Shown: in pieces, positions 11,937 to 27,944 of the stretch | Numbering within the stretch: position 1 is the stretch's first letter | Layout: the number at the start of each line of letters is the position of its first letter | NCBI GenBank assembly: GCA_965224465.1 | Contig: OZ245049.1 | Span: forward strand, 90,001-122,000 | Direction of reading: 5' to 3' | Origin: Flavobacteriaceae bacterium | GTDB lineage: Bacteria > Bacteroidota > Bacteroidia > Flavobacteriales > Flavobacteriaceae | DNA length: 32,000 nt | Made by a program: the position numbers and the translations under genes | The notes under the pieces: generated by a model | What the model was told of the DNA's origin: nothing | What the model saw: the letters and a program-made list of their open reading frames with translations, nothing else | The model's database searches: none

Positions 11937-12711
11937 CTAGCTAGGCGGAAAATCTAAGGATAGCCTTAGCTATCGTTCTATTTTTCAACAACGCTAGCAC
12001 ATAAAATAAACTATTTATAGCTGTCATTTTGGGTTTTAATTGGTATTATAGCTAGGCGGGAAATCTAAGGATAGCCTTAGCTATCGTTCTATTTTTCAAC
12101 AACGCTAGCACATAAAACAACCTATTTATAGCTGTCATTTTGGGTTTTAATTGGTATTATAGCTAGGCGAAAAGCGGATGGATAGCCTTAGCTATCGTTC
12201 TGTTTTTCAACAACGTTAGTACGTAAAACAACCTATTTACATAGGTCATTTTGGATTTTAATTGGTATTATAGCTAGGCGGAAAATGGATGGATAGCCTT
12301 AGCTATCGTTCTGTTTTTCAACAACGTTAGCACGTAAAACAACCTATTTGTATCGGTCATTTTGGGTTTTAATTGGTGTTCTATATAGGCGAAAAATGGA
12401 TGGACAGCCTTAGCTATCGTTCTGTTTTTCAACAACGCTAGCACATAAAATAAACTATTTATAGCTGTCATTTTGGGTTTTAATTGGTATTATAGCTAGG
12501 CGAAAAGTGGATGGATAGCCTTAGCTATCGTTCTATTTTTCAACAACGTTAGCACATAAAACAACTTATTTATATCGGTCATTTTGGATTTTAATAGGTG
12601 TTCTAGCTAGGCGAAAAGTGGATGGATAGTCTTAGTTATCGTTCTGTTTTTCAACAACGTTAGCGCATAAAACAACCTATTTATATCGGTTATTTTGGAT
12701 TGTAATTGTAT
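11937..12711 (+). repeat. Seven tandem 111-bp right modules of the repeat family
   Basis: The TAGCTAGGCG motif recurs at 11938, 12049, 12160, 12271, 12382 (variant TATATAGGCG), 12493 and 12604, an exact 111-bp period. Each unit contains the hairpin GATAGC-CTTA-GCTATC and ends (T)TTAATTGGTAT. Confidence 0.95.
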
Positions 12712-13607
12712 TAGTCACTTATTTTTTTTACTTTTTGTTTTGCATCTTTATGTTTAAAACGATTGTGTGTCCAAAAATAATATTCAGGAGCTTTACGTAT
12801 TTGATTTTCTACGGTTCGTAGGAAAATATCCGTCATTTCAAAGGGTTTCATTTTACGAGTATCTTCGCAAACCAATTTGAATTCACCTTCGTAATAGCCA
12901 CGTTTTACTTTTTTTACATCAAAAAAGACGGTAGATAGGTCAAACCTTTTTGCAAGCATTTCTGCACCTGTATGTACAGGTACTTTTACACCCATAAATG
13001 GTGCCCAATAGAATGTTTTGTGAAGTTCAGGAGATTGGTCACTTAGCAGTCCATAAAAGGCATTAACTCCTTCTTTTTGATCCTTTATAATTTGGGGTAT
13101 TAATTCTTTTCCAGGGATTAAATATCCGCCAAAACGCGCTCTTGATTTGGTGATGAAATTATTAAAATATTTATTTCCAATAGGGGTAAAAATACCATAA
13201 GTTGGAATGTTGGAGTACATGGCAAAAGAAACTACCCATTCCCAGTTTGCATAATGGCTAGCCAATAAAATAACTCCCTTTTTATGGGTTAACGATTCTA
13301 CTAATTCGAAATTTTTAAATTTATATCGTTTTTTAATTTCCTTTTTACTCATGGTAAAAGTCTTGACCATCTCCATAAAAACATCTACAAAATGTTTGTA
13401 AAATTTTCGTTGAATGTGGAGTAATTCTTTCTCCGACTTTTCTGGGAAAGAAAGGTGTAAGTTTTTCATTACTACTTCTTTTCTATAGCCTATTACATAG
13501 TACAATAAGTAAAAAATAAGGTCAGAAAAAATATATAGTATTCGAAATGGTAAGATAGATACCCCCATAATTAAGGGGTAGACGAGGATGTAAATGAGTA
13601 ATTGCAT
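12711..13607 (-). CDS. Lipid A biosynthesis acyltransferase (LpxL/HtrB/MsbB family)
   Basis: 298-aa ORF with an N-terminal TM segment, an HX4(D/E)-type motif SHYANWEW, and a family-typical C-terminus YYFWTHNRFK. Confidence 0.8.
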   Translation of the reverse strand: MQLLIYILVYPLIMGVSILPFRILYIFSDLIFYLLYYVIGYRKEVVMKNLHLSFPEKSEKELLHIQRKFYKHFVDVFMEMVKTFTMSKKEIKKRYKFKNFELVESLTHKKGVILLASHYANWEWVVSFAMYSNIPTYGIFTPIGNKYFNNFITKSRARFGGYLIPGKELIPQIIKDQKEGVNAFYGLLSDQSPELHKTFYWAPFMGVKVPVHTGAEMLAKRFDLSTVFFDVKKVKRGYYEGEFKLVCEDTRKMKPFEMTDIFLRTVENQIRKAPEYYFWTHNRFKHKDAKQKVKKISD

Positions 13608-14661: not shown

Positions 14662-14663
14662 AG

Positions 14664-14736
14664 AGCGAAAGACCGGGTTCGAACCGGCGACATTCAGCTT
14701 GGAAGGCTGACGCTCTACCAACTGAGCTACTTTCGC
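14664..14736 (-). tRNA. tRNA-Gly (anticodon UCC), copy 1
   Basis: The reverse complement folds as a cloverleaf: GCGAAAG TA GCTC AGTTGGTA GAGC G TCAGC CTTCCAA GCTGA ATGTC GCCGG TTCGAAC CCGGT CTTTCGC T. 73 nt, CCA not encoded. Confidence 0.93.
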
Positions 14737-14747
14737 ATTACCGAGTG

Positions 14748-14755
14748 CGAATATA
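14748..14755 (-). promoter_or_regulatory. Candidate -7 box for tRNA-Gly copy 1
   Basis: The minus strand reads TATATTCG (one mismatch to TAnnTTTG), 11 nt upstream of the tRNA 5' end. A TTG lies 19 nt further upstream. Confidence 0.45.
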
Positions 14756-14960
14756 CAATGGTTTTTTAGAAAAACAAGTCTTTTGAAATACTTTTTTTAG
14801 TAGTTTTTATAAGTGTTTGTCGCTTAAAACAATACCTTGTCTTAGTGAAAAATATAAAGAAATAGTTTTTATAAACAAATAGGAGAGGTTGTTTTTTATA
14901 CCAAGCTGTTTTTAAAGAAATTTTTAAATAATAGGTTTTTTTCTTATAGATATTAAGCAT

Positions 14961-14984
14961 AAAAAAACCTCGATAAAATCGAGG
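14961..14984 (-). terminator. Terminator downstream of tRNA-Gly copy 2
   Basis: The plus strand reads AAAAAAA-CCTCGAT-AAA-ATCGAGG. On the minus strand this is a hairpin followed by a U-run. Confidence 0.7.
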
Positions 14985-14992
14985 TTTCTTAG

Positions 14993-15065
14993 AGCGAAAG
15001 ACCGGGTTCGAACCGGCGACATTCAGCTTGGAAGGCTGACGCTCTACCAACTGAGCTACTTTCGC
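14993..15065 (-). tRNA. tRNA-Gly (anticodon UCC), copy 2
   Basis: Identical 73-nt sequence to copy 1. Confidence 0.93.
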
Positions 15066-15075
15066 ATTACGAGTA

Positions 15076-15083
15076 CAAATATA
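15076..15083 (-). promoter_or_regulatory. Candidate -7 box for tRNA-Gly copy 2
   Basis: The minus strand reads TATATTTG, a perfect TAnnTTTG, 10 nt upstream of the tRNA 5' end. Confidence 0.5.
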
Positions 15084-15333
15084 CAATGGTTTTTTAGTAA
15101 AACAAGCCTTTTGAAATAGTTTTTTCGTTTGTTTTTATAAGTGTTTGTGTTTTAAAACGATACGTTTATTGTTTGTTAGAAAATAAATGAAGGCATTTAA
15201 ATAAATGAAAAAGAGAGGGGTAATTTAATCCCACCAGTGGGTTTTATTCCCCGATACTTGCATCGAAAAAATTATGGTTTTTTCTGTTTCATGCCTCGTG
15301 GGCTTGCTCAGAGATTATTGAATTTTTATGCAT

Positions 15334-15365
15334 AAAAAAACCTCAAACAATGTTTGAGGTTTTTT
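15334..15365. terminator. Terminator downstream of tRNA-Gly copy 3
   Basis: AAAAAAA-CCTCAAAC-AAT-GTTTGAGG-TTTTTT, with the same hairpin as the copy 1 terminator. Confidence 0.75.
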
Positions 15366-15367
15366 AG

Positions 15368-15440
15368 AGCGAAAGACCGGGTTCGAACCGGCGACATTCA
15401 GCTTGGAAGGCTGACGCTCTACCAACTGAGCTACTTTCGC
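15368..15440 (-). tRNA. tRNA-Gly (anticodon UCC), copy 3
   Basis: Identical 73-nt sequence to copies 1 and 2. Confidence 0.93.
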
Positions 15441-17384: not shown

Positions 17385-18185
17385 TTACTCTACTTTAGGT
17401 TTCTTTATTGTACTTCCTTTTTTGATGGCTTTGTGGTTTTCATAACAAAGTAAGATTGCTTCTATTAATTGCAAATCACTTGCAGATTTTATAAAATAAT
17501 CGGAATAGTTACATTCGTTTAAAAGCTCGTTTAATTCTTGAGCGTTCATATTTAAATACTCCATCATTAATTCGCGATTAAATTTCCCTTCCATCATAGT
17601 ACGTAAATCATCTTGATCACGTAGTTTTTTAAGTTTTCTGAGACGTTTGGGATCTTTAGAGAACATATTGTAGACAAAATCTACAGGGTTAAACAGGGAA
17701 GAAATAGCCGATTTGTATGGAGTAGGTAGTCCAACTTCATATGTTTGTGAGAGTCCATTGATATGAATTCTTGCAAATTTGTCTACGGGGATGTTTTTAG
17801 CATCTATTTCTAGAACTCCCACTAATTTATGTGATCTAACAACAACTTCTTTCATTTCCACTCGCTTTTCATGCAAGGCAATTATTAGTTCGTTTCCTTT
17901 TAATAAATCGTTGGTGATTTTTAATTTGATAGATTGAAATCCTAAATATGATATATATAAGGTGTCATTTACTTTGGCTGGGAAACTAAAAACACCATTT
18001 TCATTACTTACAGCACCTTCTACAGTGTTTATATTAAATAAATTAGCCCCTTTTAGTCCTTTTTTTGTTTTAAAGTTGATGATTTGTCCTTTAAGAGAAA
18101 CAGTTTGTTGGAACCGAGTAATTTCTTGCGAAAACGATTGAAAACTAAGAACCAAAAAGAAGTATATTAATAATTTTTTTATCAT
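17385..18185 (-). CDS. Secreted carboxypeptidase-regulatory-like domain protein
   Basis: 266-aa ORF with a signal peptide and a CarboxypepD_reg-like segment LKGQIINFKTKKGLKGANL...GVFSFPAKVNDTLYISYLGFQ. Confidence 0.65.
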   Translation of the reverse strand: MIKKLLIYFFLVLSFQSFSQEITRFQQTVSLKGQIINFKTKKGLKGANLFNINTVEGAVSNENGVFSFPAKVNDTLYISYLGFQSIKLKITNDLLKGNELIIALHEKRVEMKEVVVRSHKLVGVLEIDAKNIPVDKFARIHINGLSQTYEVGLPTPYKSAISSLFNPVDFVYNMFSKDPKRLRKLKKLRDQDDLRTMMEGKFNRELMMEYLNMNAQELNELLNECNYSDYFIKSASDLQLIEAILLCYENHKAIKKGSTIKKPKVE

Positions 18186-18437
18186 GTTGTAAAACTAGCA
18201 ATTAATGTTAAATTAACAGTTAAAAAACTGTGAAAAGAGTAAATAAATAAATGTTTTTTGTTTTTGGGGTATTACCAATCTCCCCCTGTAAACAGGTATT
18301 TATGGTTTATATGGGTACTTCAAATGGGGCTTTTTCCCCTGCTCTTACTTCTTAAAATGTCTTAAATTTGCAGAGTAATTATTTAACCAATTATTATACG
18401 TATAAAAAGTCCTTTTTTTATGCGTAACAAGTACGAT

Positions 18438-18468
18438 AGGGATTTCACTTTATGTGAAGTCCCTTTTT
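18438..18468 (+). terminator. Orphan intrinsic terminator-like hairpin
   Basis: GGGATTTCAC-TTTAT-GTGAAGTCCC (10-bp stem, one G-U) followed by TTTTT. There is no ORF upstream on this strand. Confidence 0.5.
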
Positions 18469-18524
18469 AGAATTAAATAAATGTTGGGGAATTCGTTTTG
18501 GGAAAAGAAAATGTGTTTTAAAGG

Positions 18525-18562
18525 AATTCCCTCGATTTAATAGTATTATATTCGAGGGAATT
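18525..18562 (-). terminator. Relic terminator hairpin, paralogous to 19056-19087
   Basis: AATTCCCTCGA-TTTAATAGTATTATAT-TCGAGGGAATT. The stem core and 16-nt loop resemble those of the hmuY-like gene terminator. Confidence 0.5.
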
Positions 18563-18631
18563 ACATCAATAAAAAACATTCAAATTTACTCATAATTAAG
18601 AGCTAATAAATACTCGTAATAAGAGATGCAT

Positions 18632-18900
18632 CTAATGGATGTTTTTTCTGAGATAGTTTGGGAAGCCTAATTATATAGTTGCTATTACGAATCTTTCGAA
18701 GCCTTATCATTTTTAGAATAACTGTATCGTTTGTATACGTATTTGATTTCAACCAGTCTAACAGTTTGATTCTCTTTGTAATTACTGAATTAATACCCGT
18801 TTAATTTTGTTAAAGCCGCATCATTAGATGCTTAAATTGGTATGAGGTATTTGTATCGTGCTAATTGTGAAATTACTCTTGTTTTCTTTGTAAGTAGTGA
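18632..18900 (-). pseudogene. Decayed fragment of an HmuY-like gene (3' end)
   Basis: 18637-18723 aligns without gaps to 19179-19265 (3' end of the HmuY-like CDS), at about 65 of 87 identical positions by hand count. The matching frame carries several stop codons. Confidence 0.55.
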
Positions 18901-18905
18901 TAGTT

Positions 18906-18978
18906 ATACCAAATACATTTCCAAGTGACGGTTTAGAAATAAACTATTTATATAGGTCATTTTGGATTGTAATTGTAT
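18906..18978 (+). repeat. Internally deleted 73-bp derivative of the repeat family
   Basis: ATACCAAATACATTTCCAAGTGACGGTTTAGAAAT is joined directly to AAACTATTTATATAGGTCATTTTGGATTGTAATTGTAT. Both termini are kept and about 90 internal bp are missing. Confidence 0.85.
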
Positions 18979-19046
18979 GACTTGTCTTTTTATCATTTTA
19001 TATAGTCCTTGTCAATGGATAATTATAGGGGAGCTAAAATGAATTT

Positions 19047-19087
19047 AAAAGAAAATCCCTCGATTTAATACTATTAAATTCGAGGGA
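19047..19087 (-). terminator. Intrinsic terminator of the receptor/HmuY-like operon
   Basis: TCCCTCGA-16 nt-TCGAGGGA. On the minus strand it is followed by TTTTCTTTT (plus-strand AAAAGAAAA at 19047-19055). Confidence 0.65.
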
Positions 19088-19172
19088 CTAACACTAACAA
19101 AAATAATCAAAATTTTCTGTAACTATGAATTGATAATTTTCCATAATTAGGTATTCATTGTTTTTTTAGGTA

Positions 19173-20123
19173 CTAGAAGGATGTTTCTCCTGAGATAGGT
19201 TGGTATACATAATTGAATGTGTAATATTGTGAACCTTCCGAAGCTATATTATTTTTATAATAACTTAAGATTTCCATTTTTGCATAATTTCCATCAGCTG
19301 TTTTTATAACAATAATTTTTCCAGCGATTGGAGAAATAACATGGTTAGATGGGTTGTAATTGTACCATCCATTTCCTGAACCAGTAGTAATAGCTAGTCC
19401 GTCTTTTTTATCATCTTGCTTCAATTTTCCAGTTTCTACCTTCGTAATCTCATTCATGGTTCCTGTAGTAATATATGCTCCCGATTTTCCAGATCTAGCA
19501 GGTTGATCTTCTAAAGTAGCACTACCGCCATTTACTAATATACTGGTTCCTCTAAATGCAATGTCCCAGTCGTTTCCTTCTGTAATTGCACCTTTTTTAA
19601 AGGAAAATTTAATGTACTCTCCTGTTACACTAGGAGGGTTGGTTGTATAATCCGAAGATTGTTTAGCATATAAGTTTTTAATCTTTCCGCTTATAGGAAG
19701 GTCTTTTTTATAAAGGTTCCACCCGTAATTTTTTGTGTCATCTGCAGCAGGAAATTTCTCTTTTTTACCAGCCTCTAGTGTGGCTACTTGTTTTTTGTAA
19801 ATATTAACTTCCTTTTCTGAATAGTCTTTGAAGAACAATACATAATAGGCATTATTGCTTTCGCGGTATCCAACCCAACGTTTGTCAGATTCTGAGTAGT
19901 ATTTTTTGATAATATCATAGGATGTATTAGCAAATACTCCTTTCAAATGGTATGTTATTTTGTCTTGTGATATTGTATAAGTAGCTCTCTGAGAAATGTT
20001 TTCAACTTCAAAATTTCTACTGAAAGATCCTTCATTTAGGGCGTCTTCTGACTTGTCACTTTTTGTACATGATGTCATAGCTATTAATGCGACAAAGAGG
20101 GCTAAAAATTTAATTGTTTTCAT
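19173..20123 (-). CDS. HmuY-like lipoprotein
   Basis: 316-aa ORF with lipobox AMTSC. The C-terminal half has HmuY-family character (WDIAFRGTSILVNGG, GWYNY, IIVIKTADGNYAKMEILSYY). It lies 22 nt downstream of a TonB-dependent receptor. Confidence 0.7.
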   Translation of the reverse strand: MKTIKFLALFVALIAMTSCTKSDKSEDALNEGSFSRNFEVENISQRATYTISQDKITYHLKGVFANTSYDIIKKYYSESDKRWVGYRESNNAYYVLFFKDYSEKEVNIYKKQVATLEAGKKEKFPAADDTKNYGWNLYKKDLPISGKIKNLYAKQSSDYTTNPPSVTGEYIKFSFKKGAITEGNDWDIAFRGTSILVNGGSATLEDQPARSGKSGAYITTGTMNEITKVETGKLKQDDKKDGLAITTGSGNGWYNYNPSNHVISPIAGKIIVIKTADGNYAKMEILSYYKNNIASEGSQYYTFNYVYQPISGETSF

Positions 20124-20145
20124 AAGTTTCTGTATGTTTATTATG

Positions 20146-22263
20146 TTATAAGTGAATGTTTATTATGCTATAAATGATACGTCCAGCAATATTACTGATG
20201 TCTTTAGGTTTGGTAAAATCAAAAACGTTATCTATACCAAATCCAATGTTTATATGCTGTCCTATTTTTTTGTTTACAGCCCAATTACAAAGGCTATAAC
20301 CCGCAATAAAATCATCATATTTGTCTAAGTATTTATTTGAATTATTATTGTTTAGTTTGTCTGAAGTATCGTCGTATTGTCCGTATAGCCCATATTTACT
20401 TCTGAAGGAGACTCGAATGTTTGTGTCTAAATTCCAAGCGGGATATTCGTAAAACACCTTAAAATTAAACATGTGCTTAGACCTGTTGTACAAGCCTACA
20501 TAATCTGTTTTTTTAAGAGGAAATGATTCTAAGGTATTTGGGTTACGTCCAAAAACTTTTCCTTCTTTAAATTTTTCTACTGCTTCACTATCTTTAGCGT
20601 ATAGCAATTGATAGCCAGCTGCAATTTTTAATTGATTGTAGGGTTTAAACGTGACATTAAATTCGAGACCTGTTGTAATAACTCTATTTATATTCTGATA
20701 ACTAAAAACATTTTGACTATTGGTTTTAGTTGCGATTACTTTGGTGTCTATTAGGTCTTTAATTTTATTCCTAAAAAAGTTGGCTTCTATAGCTACCTCA
20801 GAACAAGGTTTGTAATGCATGCCTATATTAATACTTACAGAACTTTCAGGTTTTAATGCAGCATTAAAGTTTTCTAAAGGAACTCTGAGGGATTCAATAA
20901 GTCCTAAGGCTTGCATAATTGGAATTTGTTTTTTTACGGCATTGTAACCTAATACAGTATATCCTACAGTTGAATTGGTAAAGTCAAAATACAATTGTCT
21001 AAAATCAGGTGCTTTAAAGCCGTATCCGATAGAACTTTTTAAAGAGAGCTGGGGTACTATTTTATATCTCAAAGCTAATTTGGGGCTAAATTGAGATTTG
21101 TATTCGGTGTGATAATCATATCTTGAACCTAAAATGACATTCCATTTTTTATGGTAGTTTACATCCCATTGAACATAAACATAAGGCGAATTAAATTGGG
21201 GGTTTTTAGAGAAATCTGTACGTTCGAGGGTTCTGTAATTTGTTCCAAATCCAGCGATGAATGTTTGATTTTTTTGTGGGGTGTATAAAAGCCTAAAAGC
21301 GGGTTTTAAGAGCGTTTCGTTGTAACTATTTTTAGAATATAAACTACCATCGCTATTGTCTAATTGTTCCGTCGCCTTGTAATTAGTTCCATAGACATCT
21401 AAATATCCTTTCCAGTTAGGGCTAAAGGTGTGATTCAGTTTTATCTGAGAATTCCATTCATTAATTTTTCCAGTTCCAGCGATGGTTTTTGTCGCAATAT
21501 AGTCTTGGTCTTGTCTAAAAAAACGACCCGAAACAAGCAGACTTGTGTTTTTACTAAAATTGTATGCTACTTTAGTGTTAAAGGTATAATTGCTATAAGG
21601 GTCTACTGTTTTTAACTCTTTTTCTGGAATAAGGTCATAACCATCTGTACTATATCTATTTGCAAAAGCACTAATGCTCAGTTGCTCTTTTTTATAATCA
21701 ATGTTTAGATTGGCATCTTGCGTATTGTTTGTGGCGTAATTATAATTAGCAGTGGCTTTAATTCCTTCTGTAGGAGTTGCTGTAATAATATTAATCACTC
21801 CACCCAGTGCTTCGGATCCGTATAAGCTAGAGGATGCACCTTTGACGACCTCAATTTGCTTGATGTTTCCTAGAGCAATCCTACTCAGGTCTAGCGTTCC
21901 CGCAGAGCGCCCAATTAGTGGAACACCGTCTATTAAGATTAAGGTATACTGAGCATCCATACCTTGGAGTTGTATTCCTTCGCCTCCTCCAAAATCAGGA
22001 ATGGTAATCAGTCCGGTTTGTTCATTCAATAGTTTATTCAAACGCGTAGTGTGACTTTTTTTTATTTCTTTTTTACCTATTAGTAATACGGGTAATGGAA
22101 GTGAAGACACCTGTCTATTTGTTCTTGTAGCTGTTATTACGACAGCTTCTAATGTTGTAGTATCTGTACTGTCTTTTTTTGTGGGTTCAATTTTAGATTC
22201 ACTGGATTGTGCTGTCAAAAAGTTGACAGTAAATAGTAGCAATAGGGTATATAGGTGCCTCAT
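20146..22263 (-). CDS. TonB-dependent outer-membrane receptor
   Basis: 705-aa ORF with a signal peptide, plug domain (VVITATRT, GIQLQGMDAQYTLILIDGVP, SSLYGSEALGGVINIIT) and a beta-barrel. Confidence 0.9.
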   Translation of the reverse strand: MRHLYTLLLLFTVNFLTAQSSESKIEPTKKDSTDTTTLEAVVITATRTNRQVSSLPLPVLLIGKKEIKKSHTTRLNKLLNEQTGLITIPDFGGGEGIQLQGMDAQYTLILIDGVPLIGRSAGTLDLSRIALGNIKQIEVVKGASSSLYGSEALGGVINIITATPTEGIKATANYNYATNNTQDANLNIDYKKEQLSISAFANRYSTDGYDLIPEKELKTVDPYSNYTFNTKVAYNFSKNTSLLVSGRFFRQDQDYIATKTIAGTGKINEWNSQIKLNHTFSPNWKGYLDVYGTNYKATEQLDNSDGSLYSKNSYNETLLKPAFRLLYTPQKNQTFIAGFGTNYRTLERTDFSKNPQFNSPYVYVQWDVNYHKKWNVILGSRYDYHTEYKSQFSPKLALRYKIVPQLSLKSSIGYGFKAPDFRQLYFDFTNSTVGYTVLGYNAVKKQIPIMQALGLIESLRVPLENFNAALKPESSVSINIGMHYKPCSEVAIEANFFRNKIKDLIDTKVIATKTNSQNVFSYQNINRVITTGLEFNVTFKPYNQLKIAAGYQLLYAKDSEAVEKFKEGKVFGRNPNTLESFPLKKTDYVGLYNRSKHMFNFKVFYEYPAWNLDTNIRVSFRSKYGLYGQYDDTSDKLNNNNSNKYLDKYDDFIAGYSLCNWAVNKKIGQHINIGFGIDNVFDFTKPKDISNIAGRIIYSIINIHL

Positions 22264-22299
22264 AGTTTATAATTAATCTAAATAAAGGTAATTACAGTG

Positions 22300-22348
22300 C
22301 AAATATATCATTAATTTTAATTTAGATTGGTTTAATATAATATATTTG
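22300..22348. promoter_or_regulatory. Divergent promoter region with two back-to-back -7 boxes
   Basis: CAAATATA at 22300-22307 reads TATATTTG on the minus strand, 36 nt before the receptor start. TATATTTG at 22341-22348 is on the plus strand, 32 nt before the chelatase-like gene start. Confidence 0.5.
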
Positions 22349-22380
22349 TAAAAATATTTATAACTATAATTTTATATCAA

Positions 22381-23289
22381 ATGAAAACATTCAAAATCTC
22401 TTTATTATTAATATGTGCTACCTTATTTGTGGCATGTGGAACCTCTACGGGAGAAAAGAAAAATACGTCTAGCCCAGAAAAAAAAATAGGTATTCTTTTG
22501 GTAAACCATGGATCGGTTGCTAAATCTTGGAGGCAAATGCTCTTAGATGTTGAAGATGACGTTAAAGAAACATTGTTGTCAAATCCTAAGATAAGTAAAG
22601 TTTCGACTGCTTTTATGGAATACACAGAGCCGTCTATTGCTACACGTATGAAGGAGTTTGATGCAGAGGGCTATGATGAAGTGGTTGTAATTCCAATATT
22701 TTTAACAGTAAGTTCACATTACAGTCATGATATTCCAGTAATTTTAGGTGTAAGTGCAGATCCTAAAGCCAAAGACTATATGATAGGGAAAGAGAAAATT
22801 GAAGTTTATAAAGCAAAAGCTAGAGTAACGATAACACCTCCTTTGGATTATTCTACGATCCTTAAAAAGAATGTAGAACGTCGCGTAAAAGCATTGAGTA
22901 AAAACCCTGAAAATGAAGGAGTTTTATTAGTTGCTTATGGGGATGCTAAATACAACCAACAATGGGAAGAAATGGTGGATGAAATAGGTAAGTATTTAAA
23001 AATTAAGACAGGACATGAAAGTATTGCTTATTCATGGTGTGGTCATTTGGTAGGTTATTCTCCAGAACCTACAGTGAAGGGAATTGAGCAGTTACAAAAA
23101 TTGGAAGATAATGTTATTGTAATCCCTGTTTTAGTAGCGAATGATCCTTATTTTCAAGAAAAAATAATACAAACTGCAGTGGATCAAATGAAAGGAAATG
23201 TATTGTATGTACAAGATGCTATTTTACCAGATGCTAATCTAAACAAATGGGTGATTGATATTGCCAATAATACAGTAGAAGGATTATAG
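22381..23289 (+). CDS. Exported class II chelatase-like lipoprotein (CbiX/CbiK/SirB type)
   Basis: 302-aa ORF with lipobox FVAC. Two chelatase-like halves: ILLVNHGS...VIPIFLTVSSHYSHDIP and VLLVAYGD...VIPVLVAND. Confidence 0.7.
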   Translation: MKTFKISLLLICATLFVACGTSTGEKKNTSSPEKKIGILLVNHGSVAKSWRQMLLDVEDDVKETLLSNPKISKVSTAFMEYTEPSIATRMKEFDAEGYDEVVVIPIFLTVSSHYSHDIPVILGVSADPKAKDYMIGKEKIEVYKAKARVTITPPLDYSTILKKNVERRVKALSKNPENEGVLLVAYGDAKYNQQWEEMVDEIGKYLKIKTGHESIAYSWCGHLVGYSPEPTVKGIEQLQKLEDNVIVIPVLVANDPYFQEKIIQTAVDQMKGNVLYVQDAILPDANLNKWVIDIANNTVEGL

Positions 23290-23290
23290 T

Positions 23291-24703
23291 ATGAATAAGG
23301 TTTTACTTTTTGCAAAAGAAGAACAATATAAAATGATAGCAACTACAATTGTTGCTGTCATTTTTCTTTATTTTTGGCTCAATGGTCCTTTGTTGCGCGG
23401 TGTAGAAATACTGAGTCTTGAAACTATTGAAACAAAATTTTCTATGCCTGTTTTGGTTGGGGCTGATGGGGTTGATAACAAAAGTACCCTGTCTACTTTT
23501 CATACCATAAATTTACAGGAAGAAGTTGGTTTTGGTTATGGATTACTTTTCTTAAAAAATCAACGCCCTAAATATTATGGACTCATTGCGGATGTAGAAA
23601 ATAATCCAGGCTTATCACTGGAATTGGGAACGAAACTCTTAGAGCATGCGTTGCAATTTTGTATGCCATCTGAAACGGTAACATTGCATCCTTCAACCAG
23701 TATGTATTATGTAAAAATAGTAGATACTTTGAGTGGAGCAACGCGTATTTATTTAGAAAGCACTGATATTGTCCACAATATTAGAGGCTACGCTGGGACT
23801 ATAAATATGGGAGTTTTTATCAACGATAAGGGAACTATTACTGCAGTAGAACATATTTCATCCAAAGAAACCCAAAGTTATTTAGCGACTATAAAACGTA
23901 CGGGGTTCTATGAGCAATTCGGAAATGTTAACATTAAAAACGGGGCGCATAAATTGGATGCAGTTTCTGGGGCTACGTTGAGTTCAGAAGCAATGGCAAG
24001 TACTGTTTCTGCGTTAATAACACAAGGGATTCCGTATCCTATATCAAATTATGCAGACATCAACCAAGTGAATGCTTTTAGTTTAGCAGCCTTGCTGAAC
24101 AATACTTGGATCATTCATATTTTGGTGATATTTCTAATGTTTGTATTTGCGATGCAGAGAAAGGTTAAAAAGACAAAAAAATCGGTATTAATTTTAAACG
24201 TACTATCAGTTATTTATATTGGATTTTTCCTAAACAATTCATTTACGTACATTTCATTTTTACATCCTTTTGTAGGAACTTCTGTCTCTTCTTTTGTTGG
24301 TTTATATGCGTTGTTTGTGTTGCTAGGAGCTATTTGGGGGAGAAATACATATTGTAAATATGTCTGTCCTTTTGGAAATGTTCAACGTCTAATTATGAAA
24401 TTTGGACCTAAAAATGCGCGTAGGAAATTCTTTATCCCCAATGCTTGGATTTATAAAATTAGAATGACTATTGCCATTGTTTTAATAACAGGGGTATTGT
24501 TAGGGCTTCGGAACTGGAGTAATTTTGAATTATTTCCTGATTTGTTTGGTTGGGCAACGATAGGTGTTTGGTTTGTTGTGGCATTATGTACAGTAGGACT
24601 TACCTTGGTTTATCCTATGATTTGGTGCAGATTACTCTGTCCAACAGGTGCATTACTAGATGGAATTACAGACGTGGTAAAATTTAGATTCAAGCGGAGC
24701 TAA
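23291..24703 (+). CDS. FMN_bind-domain / NapH-NosR-like polyferredoxin membrane protein
   Basis: 470-aa ORF. Has flavinylation-type motifs DTLSGAT and DAVSGAT, then TM helices with two CX3CP motifs (CKYVCPFG, CRLLCPTG). Starts 1 nt after the upstream stop. Confidence 0.75.
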   Translation: MNKVLLFAKEEQYKMIATTIVAVIFLYFWLNGPLLRGVEILSLETIETKFSMPVLVGADGVDNKSTLSTFHTINLQEEVGFGYGLLFLKNQRPKYYGLIADVENNPGLSLELGTKLLEHALQFCMPSETVTLHPSTSMYYVKIVDTLSGATRIYLESTDIVHNIRGYAGTINMGVFINDKGTITAVEHISSKETQSYLATIKRTGFYEQFGNVNIKNGAHKLDAVSGATLSSEAMASTVSALITQGIPYPISNYADINQVNAFSLAALLNNTWIIHILVIFLMFVFAMQRKVKKTKKSVLILNVLSVIYIGFFLNNSFTYISFLHPFVGTSVSSFVGLYALFVLLGAIWGRNTYCKYVCPFGNVQRLIMKFGPKNARRKFFIPNAWIYKIRMTIAIVLITGVLLGLRNWSNFELFPDLFGWATIGVWFVVALCTVGLTLVYPMIWCRLLCPTGALLDGITDVVKFRFKRS

Positions 24704-24757: not shown

Positions 24758-25426
24758 ATGAAACCTATCGTATCTATTGAAGAACTAGAAAAATTAGAAA
24801 ACCAATTGCGTTGTCCTCAAGGGGAAGATGGAATTGTGATTGCTCAGCAAATGAATACAAGTAATATGGGCATGACAAAAACAACGATCAAAGCCCTCCG
24901 TTTAGAGGTGAATAATACTGTTTTGGAAATTGGTCATGGAAACTGTGGACATTTGTCTGTATTGCTTTCCAATGCTAAAAACCTACAATATACAGGTTTG
25001 GAGATTTCTGAAACTATGCAACAAGAAGCACGTTCTTTAAATAAGGAGTTGCTAAAGAGACATCCTATTGATTTTTTAATTTATAATGGGGTGGAATTTC
25101 CATTTAAAGAGGAGTGTTTTGATCGTATAATGTCAGTTAATACAGTGTATTTTTGGGAGGATCCTTTACTGTTTTTAACTGAAATTTATCGGGTTCTAAA
25201 ACCTGGAGGTCTTTTTGTACTAACGTTTGCGCAAAAAGAGTTTATGAAGACCTTGCCTTTTGTGAGGGATAAATTTCGAACCTATGATTGTGATGACCTG
25301 AAAGAGATATTAGTAGATACAGATTTTATATTTGTTAGTGCAACGGATACAACAGACACTGTAAAAAGTAAATCGGGTAGCATGGTAGCACGTACCTATA
25401 CGGTTATGAGTTTATGCCGTTCTTAG
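24758..25426 (+). CDS. Class I SAM-dependent methyltransferase
   Basis: 222-aa ORF with motif I-like VLEIGHGNCG and post-I/II elements (RIMSVNTVYFW, LKPGGLFVLTF). Confidence 0.7.
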   Translation: MKPIVSIEELEKLENQLRCPQGEDGIVIAQQMNTSNMGMTKTTIKALRLEVNNTVLEIGHGNCGHLSVLLSNAKNLQYTGLEISETMQQEARSLNKELLKRHPIDFLIYNGVEFPFKEECFDRIMSVNTVYFWEDPLLFLTEIYRVLKPGGLFVLTFAQKEFMKTLPFVRDKFRTYDCDDLKEILVDTDFIFVSATDTTDTVKSKSGSMVARTYTVMSLCRS

Positions 25427-25494: not shown

Positions 25495-25530
25495 AATAGG
25501 TGCTGTTTTGTTCAGCACCTATTATTTTTA
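25495..25530 (+). terminator. Intrinsic terminator between convergent methyltransferase and ATPase genes
   Basis: AATAGGTGCTG-TTTTGTT-CAGCACCTATT followed by ATTTTT. Confidence 0.7.
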
Positions 25531-25532
25531 GA

Positions 25533-27485
25533 TCAATCCCATTTCATATATTGTAATCTTACTGCATTTAATATGGCGAGCATGGCGACACCTACATCTG
25601 CAAAAACAGCAGCCCACATGTTTGCTAAACCGAGCCCTCCTAAGACAATCACTATTAGTTTTACGCCAAAAGCAAGGTAGATGTTTTGCCAAATTACCTT
25701 TTGGGTAGATTTACTTATTTGGATGGCAGTATTAAATTTAGAAGGTTCATCTGTTTGGAAAATTACATCTGCAGTTTCTATCGCAACATCACTTCCCATA
25801 GCTCCCATTGCGATCCCTAATTGACTTGCTGCTAGTACCGGAGCATCGTTGATGCCATCGCCTATAAATGCAACTACTTTTGTTGTATCTGTTTGAATTT
25901 CTTGTACAATGCGTAATTTGTCTTCGGGCAATAAACCACCTTGGGCATTTTTGATTCCAAGTAATGCTGCTACTTTTTGACAAATGGAATCCTTGTCTCC
26001 AGACAGCATGATTATTTCTTTTATTCCTAATGATTTTATTCCATTAATGCTCTCTAGAGCATCTTCTTTTAGCGTATCAGCAATAGTTATATAACCAACA
26101 TAGACGTGGTCGATGGCAATGAGTACACACGTTTCCACAATGGTATCTATAAATGTTGGAATTTGGATGTTAAAATGTTCAAGTAATTTTTTGTTTCCTG
26201 CCAATACATGCGTTCCGTTAATTTTTCCTGAGAGTCCTTTTCCTCCAATTTCAGAAACTTCTGTAGATGGATATAATGTTTCATCAAGTTTATAAAGCTG
26301 CAATGCTTTGGAGATGGGATGCGTAGAGTTTTTTTCTAAAGAAATTACAATTCGCATGAATTCCTTTTCGGAAATAGTACGATTCGGTACAATATCCTTG
26401 ATTTCAAATACGCCTTTTGTTACGGTTCCCGTTTTATCCATAACTACGGTAGTTACCTTTGTAATAAGCTCCATATAGGTGGCTCCTTTAAATAAGATTC
26501 CATGTTTGGATGCAGCTCCGAGTCCTCCAAAATATCCTAGAGGAATTGAAATCACTAAAGCGCAAGGACATGAAATCACTAAAAATATAAGGGCTCTGTA
26601 CAGCCAATCTGCAAACTGATAATCACTTACAAAAAAATAAGGGATACACGTGATGGCAATGGCTAAATAAACAACTATTGGTGTGTATATTTTTGCGAGT
26701 TTTCGAATAAGTAGTTCTGTTTTTGCTTTTTTACTCGTAGCATTTTTAACCAATTCTAATATTTTAGAAACGGCACTGTCTTTAAATAATGCAGAAACTT
26801 TTATCTCTATTACCCCTTCCAAATTTATAGCTCCAGCAAATACTTTTTCGTTTGTTTGTACTGTATTAGGCTTGCTTTCTCCAGTGAGTGCTGCGGTATT
26901 TAAACGTGCTTTATCAGAGAGTAAGATGCCATCTAAAGGAATGCGTTCTCCTACTTTAATTTGGATTTTCTCTCCTATGTCAACGTGTTCTGGATGTATG
27001 GATTGATATGCTTTATCTCTGTATACGTGAGCAATCTTTGAGCGTACATCTAGCAAGGCTGTAATGTTGTTTTTTGCACGGTTTACAGCGCTTTCTTGGA
27101 ATAATTCTCCTACAGCATAAAAGAGCATCACTGCTACACCTTCTGAATATTCACCGATGGAAAAAGCTCCAATGGTAGCGATACTCATTAGGAAGAATTC
27201 CGTAAAAAAAGCTCCTTTTTTTATGGATTCTATAGCTTCCATCAAAACAGGGTATGCAACGGGTAGATAGGCTATTAAATACCATGTTATTCGTATCCAT
27301 CCCTTAAAAAAAGACACGTTAAAAATATGTTCAATTGCAAGCCCAGAAAGGAGCATTACAAAACTAAAAATGGCTAAAGTACTTGCATGTACTCCGTGAT
27401 TATGTGCATGTTCTTCTGGTGCTGCACTCGGTGAGCATAGTTCACTAGAACAACAATTACTTTTATGTGAAGTTATATGTTTCAT
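25533..27485 (-). CDS. P1B-2 type heavy-metal (Zn/Cd/Pb-class) exporting P-type ATPase
   Basis: 650-aa ORF with DKTGTVT, GDGINDAP and TM signatures CPCALVISIP, NIYLAFGVK and DVGVAMLAILN. The N-terminus is Cys/His-rich (CCSSELC, HAHNHGVH) rather than an HMA domain. Confidence 0.88.
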   Translation of the reverse strand: MKHITSHKSNCCSSELCSPSAAPEEHAHNHGVHASTLAIFSFVMLLSGLAIEHIFNVSFFKGWIRITWYLIAYLPVAYPVLMEAIESIKKGAFFTEFFLMSIATIGAFSIGEYSEGVAVMLFYAVGELFQESAVNRAKNNITALLDVRSKIAHVYRDKAYQSIHPEHVDIGEKIQIKVGERIPLDGILLSDKARLNTAALTGESKPNTVQTNEKVFAGAINLEGVIEIKVSALFKDSAVSKILELVKNATSKKAKTELLIRKLAKIYTPIVVYLAIAITCIPYFFVSDYQFADWLYRALIFLVISCPCALVISIPLGYFGGLGAASKHGILFKGATYMELITKVTTVVMDKTGTVTKGVFEIKDIVPNRTISEKEFMRIVISLEKNSTHPISKALQLYKLDETLYPSTEVSEIGGKGLSGKINGTHVLAGNKKLLEHFNIQIPTFIDTIVETCVLIAIDHVYVGYITIADTLKEDALESINGIKSLGIKEIIMLSGDKDSICQKVAALLGIKNAQGGLLPEDKLRIVQEIQTDTTKVVAFIGDGINDAPVLAASQLGIAMGAMGSDVAIETADVIFQTDEPSKFNTAIQISKSTQKVIWQNIYLAFGVKLIVIVLGGLGLANMWAAVFADVGVAMLAILNAVRLQYMKWD

Positions 27486-27533
27486 AAGTATCTCTATTTT
27501 GATAGTACAAAGCTAAGAGATAATTACTGCAAC

Positions 27534-27944
27534 TCAATTGCAATTTGAGCAGATGCCTTTAAGGACTAAATTATATTGTTTCAGGATAAAGTTTTTGGGC
27601 AATTCTAATGTTGGGATTTCCATGTGGTTTAAGCAAAAAGTTTCATCGCATTTTTCACAATAAAAATGAAAATGTTGATCTTTTAAACTGCAATCACATG
27701 TTGCTGTACAAAGGCCGTATTTAAGGATTCCGCTTCCATCTTCTATTTTATGGATCACTCCATTTTCTTCAAATGTTTTTAGGGTTCGGAACAGCGTACT
27801 TCTATCAGATTGTAAAAAATGAGCCTCCAAATCCAATAGGGAAGTGGTATGCCCCAAATTTGTTAGGTATTTGAGAATCAGAATTCGCATGGCTGTCGGG
27901 CGAATTCCTCTTGTAGAAAGCTTTTTTTCTTCTTTATCATTCAT
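27534..27944 (-). CDS. Fur-family metalloregulator (Zur-like)
   Basis: 136-aa ORF with a winged-helix N-terminus (RPTAMRILILKYL), HFHFYCEKC and a C-terminal CSNC pair. Confidence 0.8.
   Translation of the reverse strand: MNDKEEKKLSTRGIRPTAMRILILKYLTNLGHTTSLLDLEAHFLQSDRSTLFRTLKTFEENGVIHKIEDGSGILKYGLCTATCDCSLKDQHFHFYCEKCDETFCLNHMEIPTLELPKNFILKQYNLVLKGICSNCN

Follow-up and report, generated by a model that had tools for sequence, protein, structure and literature searches.

A conserved, predicted Fur-regulated gene module proposed to release iron from haem in the periplasm

Overview

A locus in the window (the whole 32,000-nucleotide stretch of DNA from a Flavobacteriaceae bacterium that was analysed) is, by sequence comparison, a conserved gene module of marine Bacteroidota and of some sulfur and methane Gammaproteobacteria. 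Our preferred reading, to which we give an even chance, is that it is a Fur-repressed iron-starvation module that frees iron from haem by reductive de-chelation in the periplasm. If true, this would be a route of periplasmic haem iron removal new to the literature, in which no paper was found that describes the combination of receptor and HmuY partner, exported chelatase and redox protein.

Results

Layout of the locus

The open reading frame map and profile searches bear out where an earlier note on this DNA had placed the five open reading frames of the locus and their domains. The features, in window coordinates, are as follows.

19173-20123, minus strand: HmuY-like lipoprotein (316 aa; PF14064)
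20146-22263, minus strand: TonB-dependent receptor (705 aa; Plug and barrel domains)
117 bp between the receptor and chelatase operons: divergent intergenic gap
22263..22285, plus strand: predicted Fur box 1, TAGTTTATAATTAATCTAAATAA, between the receptor -7 box and the receptor start codon
22300..22307, minus strand: Bacteroidota-type -7 promoter box of the receptor/HmuY operon, TATATTTG on the minus strand (sequence read directly)
22318..22340, minus strand: predicted Fur box 2, weaker, with a good half-site; immediately next to the -7 box of the chelatase operon
22341..22348, plus strand: Bacteroidota-type -7 promoter box of the chelatase/redox operon, TATATTTG, 33 nt upstream of the ATG
22381-23289, plus strand: CbiX/SirB-type chelatase-like lipoprotein (302 aa; PF01903, lipoprotein signal peptide)
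23291-24703, plus strand: RdhC/PceC-type membrane flavoprotein (470 aa; FMN_bind and Fer4_5)
24758-25426, plus strand: methyltransferase, outside the conserved module
25495..25523, no strand assigned: bidirectional terminator-like hairpin (11-bp stem, then a T-run)

The membrane protein gene begins 1 nt past the chelatase stop codon, and the hairpin ends the plus-strand transcription unit 3' of the methyltransferase. The latter, which the earlier note lists with the locus, is not conserved alongside the other genes and was rejected as a module member, as were an ATPase and a Fur-family gene.

Conservation of the gene neighbourhood

The comparative set comprised 80 related loci, 52 of them with full flanks. 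In 49 of the 52, spread over Bacteroidota and Gammaproteobacteria, the gene for the chelatase-like lipoprotein is the direct neighbour of one for a membrane redox protein, a frequency in two phyla that chance would not come close to explaining. In 39 loci the gene directly 3' of the chelatase gene encodes an RdhC/PceC-type flavoprotein; in a further 10 the partner is a PepSY_TM-like protein. In a sister clade the RdhC-like protein is replaced by a PepSY_TM_like_2 protein (PF16357, 65.7 bits); the FoxB/XusC siderophore reductases, which are integral-membrane proteins (PF03929), belong to the PepSY_TM group too. That the conduit can be swapped in this way argues that reductase function is what is required.

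In 42 of the 52 full-flank loci a receptor homologous to that of the window lies no more than 6 kb from the chelatase; these receptors form one single-linkage cluster with the window receptor. HmuY-family proteins, the usual companion of the receptor in Bacteroidota, are found in about 38 of the 52, and the ChaN haem-binding protein (PF04187, 210 bits), an occasional companion there, in seven. Conservation of the neighbourhood, a check that the earlier note had proposed, thus extends to gene pairs co-conserved across two phyla. The divergent pairing that it described is real in the window but is a minority arrangement; a single operon is the usual layout elsewhere, and in two genomes the redox-protein reading frame runs in frame into that of the receptor.

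Predicted Fur regulation

The two best Fur-box matches of the window both fall inside the 117-bp divergent promoter. Box 1, at 24.6 bits, outscores every other position weight matrix (PWM) match in the window (the maximum over 50 shuffles was 15.6) and is the sole window match to ATTTAGAATTANTCTAAAT at up to three mismatches; box 2 is second at 15.8 bits, the third match scoring 6.3. Loci L002 and L003 have a full second Fur box at the position of box 2. The Fur consensus of the module agrees at 18 of 19 positions with the Fur box of R. anatipestifer, which is supported by EMSA, and this palindrome is enriched about 48-fold upstream of the module, where it occurs in 42 loci. Gammaproteobacterial modules are preceded by classical Fur boxes; one in L043 matches at 19/19 positions, and one in L055, a genome of 66% GC, at 16/19. 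GCAAATATA is kept in all six divergent-type intergenic regions, and the -7 box of the chelatase operon in L001-3 and L008. We predict from these sites that the module is iron-regulated and Fur-repressed. Co-regulation of the two operons, on which the earlier note had placed weight, would fit the location of both best predicted boxes in a common promoter and the occurrence of Fur boxes in both phyla.

The exported chelatase-like lipoprotein

The lipoprotein matches PF01903 at 53.6 bits; its signal peptide ends at Cys19, and the family keeps the lipoprotein signal in both phyla. An AlphaFold model (pLDDT 77) has the two-domain chelatase fold, with SirB 5zt9 (TM 0.74), the B. subtilis ferrochelatase and the periplasmic CbiK of D. 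vulgaris as top PDB matches. His43, Glu80 and His113, together with an HxxHDIP motif, align with the active sites of CfbA and SirB and are invariant over roughly 46-100% identity in the two phyla. The catalytic histidines that the earlier note had asked for are present, the alignment leaving the His/Glu/His site intact. With a class II two-domain fold and invariant SirB/CfbA metal residues, the lipoprotein looks like a catalytic enzyme, and we propose it as a periplasmic haem de-chelatase.

The membrane redox protein

Two CX3CP motifs (Cys355 and Cys446) and a DAVSGAT flavinylation motif (residues 223-229, with Thr229 the predicted flavinylated residue) are invariant in 45 homologues of the membrane protein, which scores 52.2 bits for FMN_bind and 45.4 bits for Fer4_5. 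The string SGAT occurs twice, and one of the two is conserved; the several flavinylation motifs reported previously come down to this single site. Hydropathy and the positive-inside rule predict a TM helix at the N-terminus, an FMN-binding domain on the periplasmic side and a membrane module with some five TM helices. This is the four-segment module common to RdhC, NapH and NosR, with both CX3CP motifs predicted to face the cytoplasm.

FMN_bind and the CX3CP motifs therefore stand from the earlier reading of this protein, but its identity as a polyferredoxin does not, since domain searches found no ferredoxin or polyferredoxin domain. NapH or NosR proper is likewise rejected, the scores (NosR 22.6, NapH 20.3) being far under the curated cut-offs of 1000 and 213. 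By sequence the protein is RdhC/PceC-like, and we propose it as an electron conduit.

The receptor and the HmuY-family lipoprotein

Plug (74.7 bits) and barrel (131.3 bits) domains define the window receptor. Its best full-length NCBIfam alignment is to TonB-hemin, at 159.6 bits (under the cut-off of 316.85), and its top partial match is to TIGR01779 (TonB-B12), at 165 bits (far under the cut-off of 599.7). On direct reading, the stretch from its FRAP-like to its NPNL-like box contains no His. The Bacteroidota receptors of the module score under the haem-family cut-offs; the Thiorhodococcus receptor beside the pair reaches 572 bits on TIGR01785 (haem/haemoglobin receptor; cut-off 317) and is, by this model, a true haem/haemoglobin receptor. 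We regard the window receptor as a putative haem or tetrapyrrole importer.

In the HmuY-like protein an acidic/Lys stretch comes after the lipobox Cys. The PF14064 match of this protein is modest (35.4 bits, cut-off 27) and is confined to the C-terminal half (residues 170-305); the N-terminal ~165 aa matched no known domain. A DWDIAF motif and the C-terminal strands are common to this protein and 8b6a, a solved HmuY-family lipoprotein. Orthologues adjoin the receptor in L001-3, and shorter forms are found in L010 and L021.

Proposed mechanism and alternatives

We infer a substrate, a catalytic direction, an electron path and a fate for the iron as follows. A surface HmuY-family lipoprotein would catch haem and pass it to the TonB-dependent receptor, which would bring it into the periplasm, where the lipid-anchored CbiX/SirB-type class II chelatase would bind it. 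The inner-membrane RdhC/PceC-like protein would take up electrons on the membrane or cytoplasmic side, with quinol the probable donor, and send them on to covalently bound periplasmic FMN, which would reduce Fe(III)-haem to Fe(II)-haem. Running in reverse at His43/Glu80/His113, the chelatase would then release Fe(II) and protoporphyrin IX, the Fe(II) being imported by an unlinked ferrous-iron transporter.

HmuY and ChaN, the TIGR01785 receptor of Thiorhodococcus and a haem-oxygenase fusion within the chelatase family (P0134) together make the context haem-related. The reading is further supported by the fact that no alternative haem route is linked: HmuS/CobN, a haem ABC importer, HemS/ChuS and Feo are absent from the neighbourhoods of the module loci, and HmuS from all 80. 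There is also precedent, as Bacteroides frees the iron of haem in the periplasm and brings it in via FeoAB, and HmuS requires a reductant (NADH) to yield protoporphyrin IX and Fe(II). Of the metalloporphyrin de-metallation system suggested by the earlier note, the haem-type TonB/HmuY context with an exported chelatase and a conduit holds in every comparative test; reductive reverse chelation we infer. Nothing seen here falls under the findings on which that note would have given up its reading: the triad is intact, the genes are co-conserved and the receptor context is haem-type.

The equilibrium of ferrochelatases favours metal insertion; de-chelation would therefore call for an Fe(II) sink, which the module does not encode. 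Most module hosts are probably aerobes, where both Fe(II)-haem and reduced flavin would readily be oxidised; this counts against de-chelation, as do the negative result for reverse activity of FetB/IhtB on haemin, the window receptor's score under the haem-receptor cut-off and its missing His, and the modest HmuY match (35 bits).

It is conceivable, if unlikely, that the module is a haem shuttle with a haem reductase and that nothing is de-chelated. The lipoprotein would act purely as a haem-binding chaperone in the periplasm, and the flavoprotein would reduce haem either for its release from the receptor or HmuY or in preparation for an unlinked inner-membrane transporter or degrading enzyme. 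The class II fold does resemble periplasmic binding proteins, which are among the lower-ranked structural matches of the model; metalloporphyrin binding is known for FetB and for the periplasmic CbiK of D. vulgaris; and the fusion in P0134 would suit a haem hand-off domain, a role that it fits equally well as a catalytic one. However, simple binding would not need an invariant SirB-type triad and HxxHDIP motif, and none of the loci has a linked haem-degrading enzyme or haem transporter of the inner membrane.

An intact catalytic site is also what a chelatase working forwards would have. Metal (Fe(II) made from Fe(III) by the reductase, or Mn or Co) would be put into imported metal-free porphyrin, the outcome being extracytoplasmic metalloporphyrin synthesis or metal exchange. 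FetB/IhtB, the sole exported class II chelatase assayed, inserts Co and Mn, is needed for Mn-PPIX formation and had no reverse activity on haemin, in an assay whose reductant supply is unclear. We nevertheless find this distinctly unlikely: Fur-type repression speaks for iron acquisition and not consumption, the Thiorhodococcus receptor belongs to the haem/haemoglobin receptor family, the haem-oxygenase fusion points to breakdown of haem, and porphyrin salvage has no obvious need for a dedicated reductase in two unrelated forms.

We place little credence in reductive uptake of a ferric siderophore or ferric iron in the style of XusABC/FoxB, by which a ferric chelate would enter through the receptor and be reduced by the membrane protein, leaving the lipoprotein only to capture the released Fe(II) at His/Glu/His. 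XusABC consists of a TonB-dependent receptor, a surface lipoprotein and a PepSY_TM reductase, and the sister clade has a PepSY_TM-like partner; Fur regulation suits any iron uptake system, and the Bacteroidota receptors are under haem-family cut-offs. Yet HmuY and ChaN families bind haem wherever tested, the Chromatiaceae loci have a bona fide haem receptor, a family member carries the haem-oxygenase fusion, and the tetrapyrrole-chelatase fold is retained in full.

Salvage of corrinoids (vitamin B12) or another non-haem tetrapyrrole is scarcely credible: the receptor's partial TIGR01779 match and public annotations of the lipoprotein as 'cobalamin biosynthesis protein CbiX' (CbiX being annotated as a cobaltochelatase) point that way, but regulation is Fur-type, an exported protein cannot serve cytoplasmic B12 synthesis, a search of the window and of seven diverse loci gave no cobalamin riboswitch, and the loci have no linked cob, cbi or btuFCD genes.

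Comparison with known systems

Reductive de-chelation, as proposed here, would resemble the action of HmuS, the NADH-dependent anaerobic haem de-chelatase: iron is removed outside the cytoplasm with the ring uncut, a reductant is needed, and the products are Fe(II) and protoporphyrin IX. The module also shares an HmuY-family lipoprotein and a TonB receptor with the hmu operon (HmuY-HmuR-HmuS-HmuTUV). HmuS, however, is a class I (CobN/ChlH-like) chelatase of ~1400 aa, whereas the candidate is a class II lipoprotein of 302 aa, and the soluble NADH of HmuS would be replaced by a dedicated flavinylated membrane protein. The Hfp system of Flavobacterium psychrophilum (HfpR/HfpY) is likewise a flavobacterial iron-repressed TonB receptor with a haem-binding HmuY-like protein and without HmuS. 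Its genes belong to a region that responds to iron and is said to encode transmembrane electron-transfer proteins; a chelatase is neither reported there nor mentioned in its supplement.

P. gingivalis IhtB/FetB and D. vulgaris CbiK are exported class II chelatases that bind metalloporphyrins, and IhtB, long proposed as a reverse ferrochelatase, is a lipoprotein whose gene adjoins that of a TonB receptor. Both belong to the CbiK family (PF06180), in contrast to the CbiX/SirB-type module protein, which has its active site in the N-terminal domain. Unlike the module, the Iht system has an ABC importer and lacks a redox partner; IhtB is thought to be surface-exposed, whereas the module lipoprotein must face the periplasm to reach the FMN domain.

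In XusABC of Bacteroides and FoxB-type systems, too, a TonB receptor works with a surface lipoprotein, and a reductase of the inner membrane frees iron from an imported chelate in the periplasm. The module differs in its haem-type ligand context (HmuY, ChaN and the TIGR01785 receptor) and its chelatase-fold protein, and the reductase in the clade of the window is flavin-based and RdhC-like, not PepSY_TM.

RdhC/PceC, NosR and NapH share with the membrane protein the N-terminal TM helix, the exocytoplasmic FMN_bind domain with its ApbE flavinylation motif and the membrane module with two CX3CP motifs; NosR and NapH have in addition a C-terminal 2x[4Fe-4S] domain that the module protein lacks. 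PceC has the same architecture, and its exocytoplasmic FMN domain has been shown experimentally. Flavinylated 'NapH-like' proteins are used modularly to supply periplasmic redox enzymes, in a survey of extracytosolic flavinylation that makes no mention of chelatases (Meheust et al. 2021). The known relatives serve reductive dehalogenase, N2O reductase, nitrite reductase or alcohol oxidase, whereas the client of the module flavoprotein would be a chelatase.

Conservation of the chelatase–redox gene pair

The locus comprises five open reading frames at the positions reported in the earlier note, and profile searches bear out the domains assigned to them there.

19173-20123 (-): HmuY-like lipoprotein, 316 aa; PF14064 at 35.4 bits (cut-off 27), C-terminal half
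20146-22263 (-): TonB-dependent receptor, 705 aa; Plug and barrel domains
22381-23289 (+): CbiX-like lipoprotein, 302 aa; PF01903 at 53.6 bits (cut-off 22), residues 43-158
23291-24703 (+): membrane protein, 470 aa; FMN_bind (PF04205) at 52.2 bits, Fer4_5 (PF12801) at 45.4 bits
24758-25426 (+): class I SAM methyltransferase, downstream of the membrane-protein gene

The divergent start codons lie 117 bp apart, a single base separates the chelatase stop codon from the start of the membrane-protein gene, and a hairpin terminator stands 3' of the methyltransferase. A sigma-70 promoter scan of the window returned 45 sites against 44 expected, and is uninformative for Bacteroidota.

By tblastn and clustering of all open reading frames we compared 80 loci with relatives of the chelatase, from Bacteroidota and Gammaproteobacteria (Chromatiaceae, Methylococcales sponge symbionts and Thiotrichales). 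Adjacency was counted in those 52 whose flanks each extend to 6 kb or more. A membrane redox protein is encoded directly 3' of the chelatase in 49 of these 52, and a homologous TonB receptor lies within 6 kb in 42; the association proposed from a single locus is conserved across two phyla. The methyltransferase, which the earlier note had listed after the membrane protein, is not conserved among the compared loci, and neither it nor the nearby P1B-ATPase and Fur-family genes, none of them co-conserved, can be counted as parts of the module.

The redox partner is RdhC-like in 39 of the 49 loci and a PepSY_TM_like_2 protein of ~190 aa in the other 10, the latter being confined to a sister clade whose chelatases are 46-50% identical. 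This smaller partner is assigned to the PepSY_TM group, along with the integral-membrane siderophore reductases FoxB/XusC. In Persicobacter diffluens pPD1 (L037 10904-14539 and L044 11002-14637) the RdhC-like frame runs into that of the TonB receptor to give one 1211-aa open reading frame, with a Lys-rich linker and a signal-peptide-like segment but no stop codon at the junction. It would be unusual for an inner-membrane protein to be joined to a barrel of the outer membrane: the product is either a fusion cleaved at the internal signal peptide, or the receptor has an internal translation start. The interchange of two unrelated reductase types, together with this run-on in two genomes, points to a redox protein integral to the uptake system.

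The commonest layout in Bacteroidota is a single operon encoding an HmuY-like protein with a T9SS tail, the chelatase, the RdhC-like protein, the receptor and a second HmuY-like protein, often with a LuxR response regulator and histidine kinase upstream. The Chromatiaceae order is chelatase, RdhC-like protein, receptor; the divergent layout of the window is common only to the close relatives Wocania and Maribacter. In Flammeovirga, Reichenbachiella and Flavicella marina a ChaN-type haem-binding protein (PF04187, 210 bits) is added. Two optional genes, for a hemerythrin-like and a DUF6686 protein, may stand between the RdhC-like gene and the receptor in the Bacteroidota operon. In locus L015 they encode ~200 aa with a weak hemerythrin HHE match (12320-12931) and ~107 aa with a CxxC motif (12937-13260), and equivalents occur between redox gene and receptor in about 8-10 loci. 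A 78-aa frame with CxxC, 5' of the receptor in Methylococcales loci (L042 6449-6685), appears to resemble the DUF6686 protein. These small proteins perhaps serve iron sensing or regulation. Feo, ApbE, a haem ABC importer and HemS/ChuS are absent among the recurrent neighbour clusters.

Several neighbours are recorded in their own right. In Thiorhodococcus a divergent operon beside the module (L055 8594-9400, -) encodes a DUF4198 periplasmic protein, a second TonB receptor, ExbB and TonB, which may mark part of a more extensive island for iron or metal uptake. In the window, 25533-27944 (-) holds a Zn/Cd/Pb-type P1B-ATPase beside a 136-aa Fur-family regulator with CxxC pairs, which is probably of Zur or metal-efflux type and not a Fur acting on the haem module. 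About 1 kb 3' of the HmuY-like gene, at 17385-18185 (-), lies the gene for a 266-aa protein with a CarboxypepD_reg-like domain, whose best NCBIfam match is the BamP family (a Bacteroidota-specific BAM component; 57.5 bits against a cut-off of 230). The ~1 kb between these two genes (18186-19172) has the lowest G+C of the window (0.28) and only frames of 49 aa or less. Three identical tRNA-Gly(TCC) genes stand in tandem at 14663-15440 (-), spaced by ~330-375 bp.

The chelatase-like lipoprotein

The lipoprotein belongs to a sharply conserved family: identity between several Bacteroidota orders is ~70%, and 126 columns of a 16-sequence alignment are invariant. It scores 76.6 bits on NCBIfam CfbA, under the equivalog cut-off of 120. 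Its AlphaFold model (pLDDT 77.2) has the two-domain alpha/beta fold of class II chelatases, and the top Foldseek matches are SirB (5zt9; E 1.5e-8, TM 0.74), Bacillus subtilis ferrochelatase (1ak1) and the Desulfovibrio periplasmic CbiK(P) (2xvz). The metal-binding His/Glu/His residues, on whose conservation the earlier proposal depended, are present: 16 homologues show no change at His43, Glu80, His113, His116, Asp117, Ile118 or Pro119, which align with their active-site counterparts in CfbA and SirB (HGS, xE..EP and HxxHDIP motifs, N-terminal domain).

Both phyla retain a signal peptide that ends in Cys, the gammaproteobacterial proteins having a classical L-S-G-C lipobox without Asp at +2. 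The family falls into 67 clusters at 50% identity (E ≤1e-30), publicly annotated as 'cobalamin biosynthesis protein CbiX' or 'sirohydrochlorin chelatase'. Because its members carry an export signal, these biosynthetic names are contradicted. In the compared loci, no sirohaem, B12 or F430 biosynthetic genes are linked to the lipoprotein.

The wider family holds some unusual members. In P0134 (542 aa, no signal peptide; gene at L081 6216-7844) a close family member (247 bits on the family profile) is fused with a haem oxygenase domain (PF01126); it lies on a high-GC contig among MerR, ECF sigma/anti-sigma and thioredoxin genes. The gene 3' of it, considered as a redox partner, is unrelated and Fic-like. 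Four proteins of 1100-1650 aa (P0167, P0207, P0221, P0235) have about four CbiX matches each (two tandem chelatase units), with SLH, copper-amine-oxidase-N-terminal, cadherin-like or FmdE domains in addition; their resemblance to Gram-positive cell-surface proteins hints that class II chelatases outside the cell form a broader class.

The membrane redox protein

The FMN domain of the membrane protein lies between TM1 and TM2, and is predicted to be exocytoplasmic by the positive-inside rule; in PceC, experiment has placed the equivalent domain on the outer side. An alignment of 45 homologues keeps the ApbE-type flavinylation motif DAVSGAT (223-229) unchanged throughout. The other 'SGAT' string, at residue 148, shows no such conservation and was rejected as a flavinylation site, which reduces to one the several sites claimed earlier. 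Two CX3CP motifs, CKYVCP at 355 and CRLLCP at 446, are likewise invariant, and fall on predicted cytoplasmic loops.

The protein has six Cys in total and ends 20 residues past the second CX3CP. With the C-terminus so close there is no ferredoxin domain, and the former label 'polyferredoxin' has to be dropped. NosR and NapH proper can also be set aside (22.6 bits against a cut-off of 1000, and 20.3 against 213; no C-terminal 2x[4Fe-4S] domain): the architecture is that of the RdhC/PceC type. A sequence search against solved structures gave only a marginal match to RnfG.

Receptor, HmuY-like proteins and ligand

Haem is a major source of iron, both in hosts and in the iron-poor ocean. On the TonB-hemin model TIGR01785 the window receptor scores 159.6 bits full-length, under the curated cut-off of 316.85, and the Bacteroidota receptors are too distant from these proteobacterial models for classification. 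The receptor directly after the gene pair in Thiorhodococcus drewsii (L055) reaches 572 bits, and on that score genuinely belongs to the haem/haemoglobin receptor family; that of the Methylococcales locus L042, at 244.7 bits, comes close to the cut-off. Where FRAP and NPNL boxes are expected, direct translation of the window receptor reads 'FKAP...NAALKPE', with no His between. In HfpR of Flavobacterium psychrophilum, a proven haem receptor, these motifs are also conserved only in part.

The HmuY-like protein of the window is a lipoprotein with a lipobox Cys, and its gene adjoins that of the receptor; relatives in other loci score 47-67 bits on PF14064. HmuY-family proteins bind haem wherever tested, Flavobacterium included. 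The match to the solved homologue 8b6a is weak (E 0.003), and the alignment too weak to place the haem-ligand positions (His/His or Met/Met pairs).

Predicted Fur regulation

Alignment of the divergent intergenic regions revealed a palindrome, TTATTTAGAATnA(A/G)TCTAAATAA, just after the Bacteroidota -7 boxes. Its half-site occurs 48 times in the intergenic DNA upstream of the module in 42 loci, an enrichment of ~48-fold, and the palindrome agrees at 18 of 19 positions with the Riemerella anatipestifer Fur box ATTTAGAATTATTCTAAAT, which was predicted with RegPredict and is carried by fragments that bound Fur in EMSA. A weight matrix trained on other loci and then scanned over the window placed its best two sites at 22263-22285 (24.6 bits) and 22318-22340 (15.8 bits), the next scoring 6.3; each adjoins one of the two divergent -7 boxes. 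Classical Fur boxes also stand upstream of gammaproteobacterial modules (L043 19/19, L055 16/19, L066 15/19), the L055 and L066 genomes being of ~65% GC. With boxes at both operons and in both phyla, we predict that the module, including both window operons, belongs to the Fur regulon and is iron-repressed.

The same type of box occurs 5' of an AraC regulator and a siderophore-type TonB receptor beside the module in Maribacter and Flammeovirga (L021 15662; L048, L049 and L054 ~8629), as would fit a shared iron regulon.

Mechanism

The earlier note proposed that the chelatase runs in reverse outside the cytoplasm, with electrons supplied by the flavinylated membrane protein. Reductive periplasmic de-chelation of imported haem is the best reading of these data, and we give it an even chance of being correct. 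The redox partner would hand electrons to its own FMN on the outer side, reduction of Fe(III)-haem would follow, and the class II chelatase would free Fe(II) and protoporphyrin IX; chelatase substrate, catalytic direction and electron source are each what we infer. There are precedents: in Bacteroides fragilis haem iron is removed in the periplasm, with FeoAB needed for uptake, and HmuS converts haem to protoporphyrin IX and Fe(II) only with the reductant NADH. The chief reservation about this reading comes from FetB/IhtB, the only exported class II chelatase assayed, which inserted Co and Mn and had no reverse activity on haemin.

The strongest rival, itself unlikely, is that the lipoprotein is a non-catalytic haem shuttle accompanied by haem reduction; it leaves the invariant active-site residues to be explained. 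Forward chelation, the activity seen in FetB/IhtB, is distinctly less probable, and ferric-chelate reduction is very improbable. Corrinoid salvage, the role that the CbiX name would evoke, is scarcely credible, an Rfam search over the window and seven diverse loci having returned only tRNAs, with no cobalamin riboswitch in any of them and no riboswitch of any kind in the window.

If periplasmic reductive de-chelation is correct, then the module may represent a second, evolutionarily independent bacterial route by which iron is taken from haem with the ring intact, a proposal that we hold tentatively and at slightly less than an even chance. A small class II lipoprotein would work in periplasmic reverse, powered via a covalently flavinylated RdhC-like protein or, in the sister clade, a PepSY_TM-like reductase, and the route would be widespread among Bacteroidota of marine and aquatic habitats and among Gammaproteobacteria that are sulfur-oxidising or related to methanotrophs. 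To our knowledge, it has been suspected since 2000, and not proved, that exported class II chelatases act as reverse ferrochelatases; the module supplies what was lacking, a dedicated reductase, together with a testable gene set in culturable hosts. The 'reverse ferrochelatase' activity long proposed for IhtB-like exported chelatases would finally be shown, and the gap left by missing HmuS or haem oxygenase next to HmuY/TonB haem receptors would be filled. A large uncharacterised branch of flavinylated 'NapH-like' extracytosolic proteins would gain a client and a function, and the widespread mis-annotation of the chelatases would be corrected.

Comparison with known systems

A survey of flavinylated systems leaves the function of most NapH-like clusters unknown and does not mention chelatases. 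We found no paper describing an exported class II chelatase, a flavinylated conduit and haem uptake together, and the available part of the supplement to the F. psychrophilum Hfp paper contains no linked chelatase or flavoprotein. The canonical hmu operon combines CobN-like HmuS and HmuTUV with HmuY/HmuR, whereas the window has no HmuS and none of the large open reading frames annotated in the 80 loci is CobN-like (they are RpoC, molybdopterin oxidoreductase, AcrB, TPR proteins and other receptors). The Iht system (IhtABCDE) joins a CbiK-family lipoprotein to a receptor and an ABC importer; the window protein, in contrast, matches CbiX and not CbiK, and no ABC importer is recurrently linked to the module. 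What is already known, separately, is periplasmic removal of haem iron without ring opening by hmu/HmuS, the exported class II chelatases IhtB/FetB and CbiK(P), and flavinylated NapH-like conduits.
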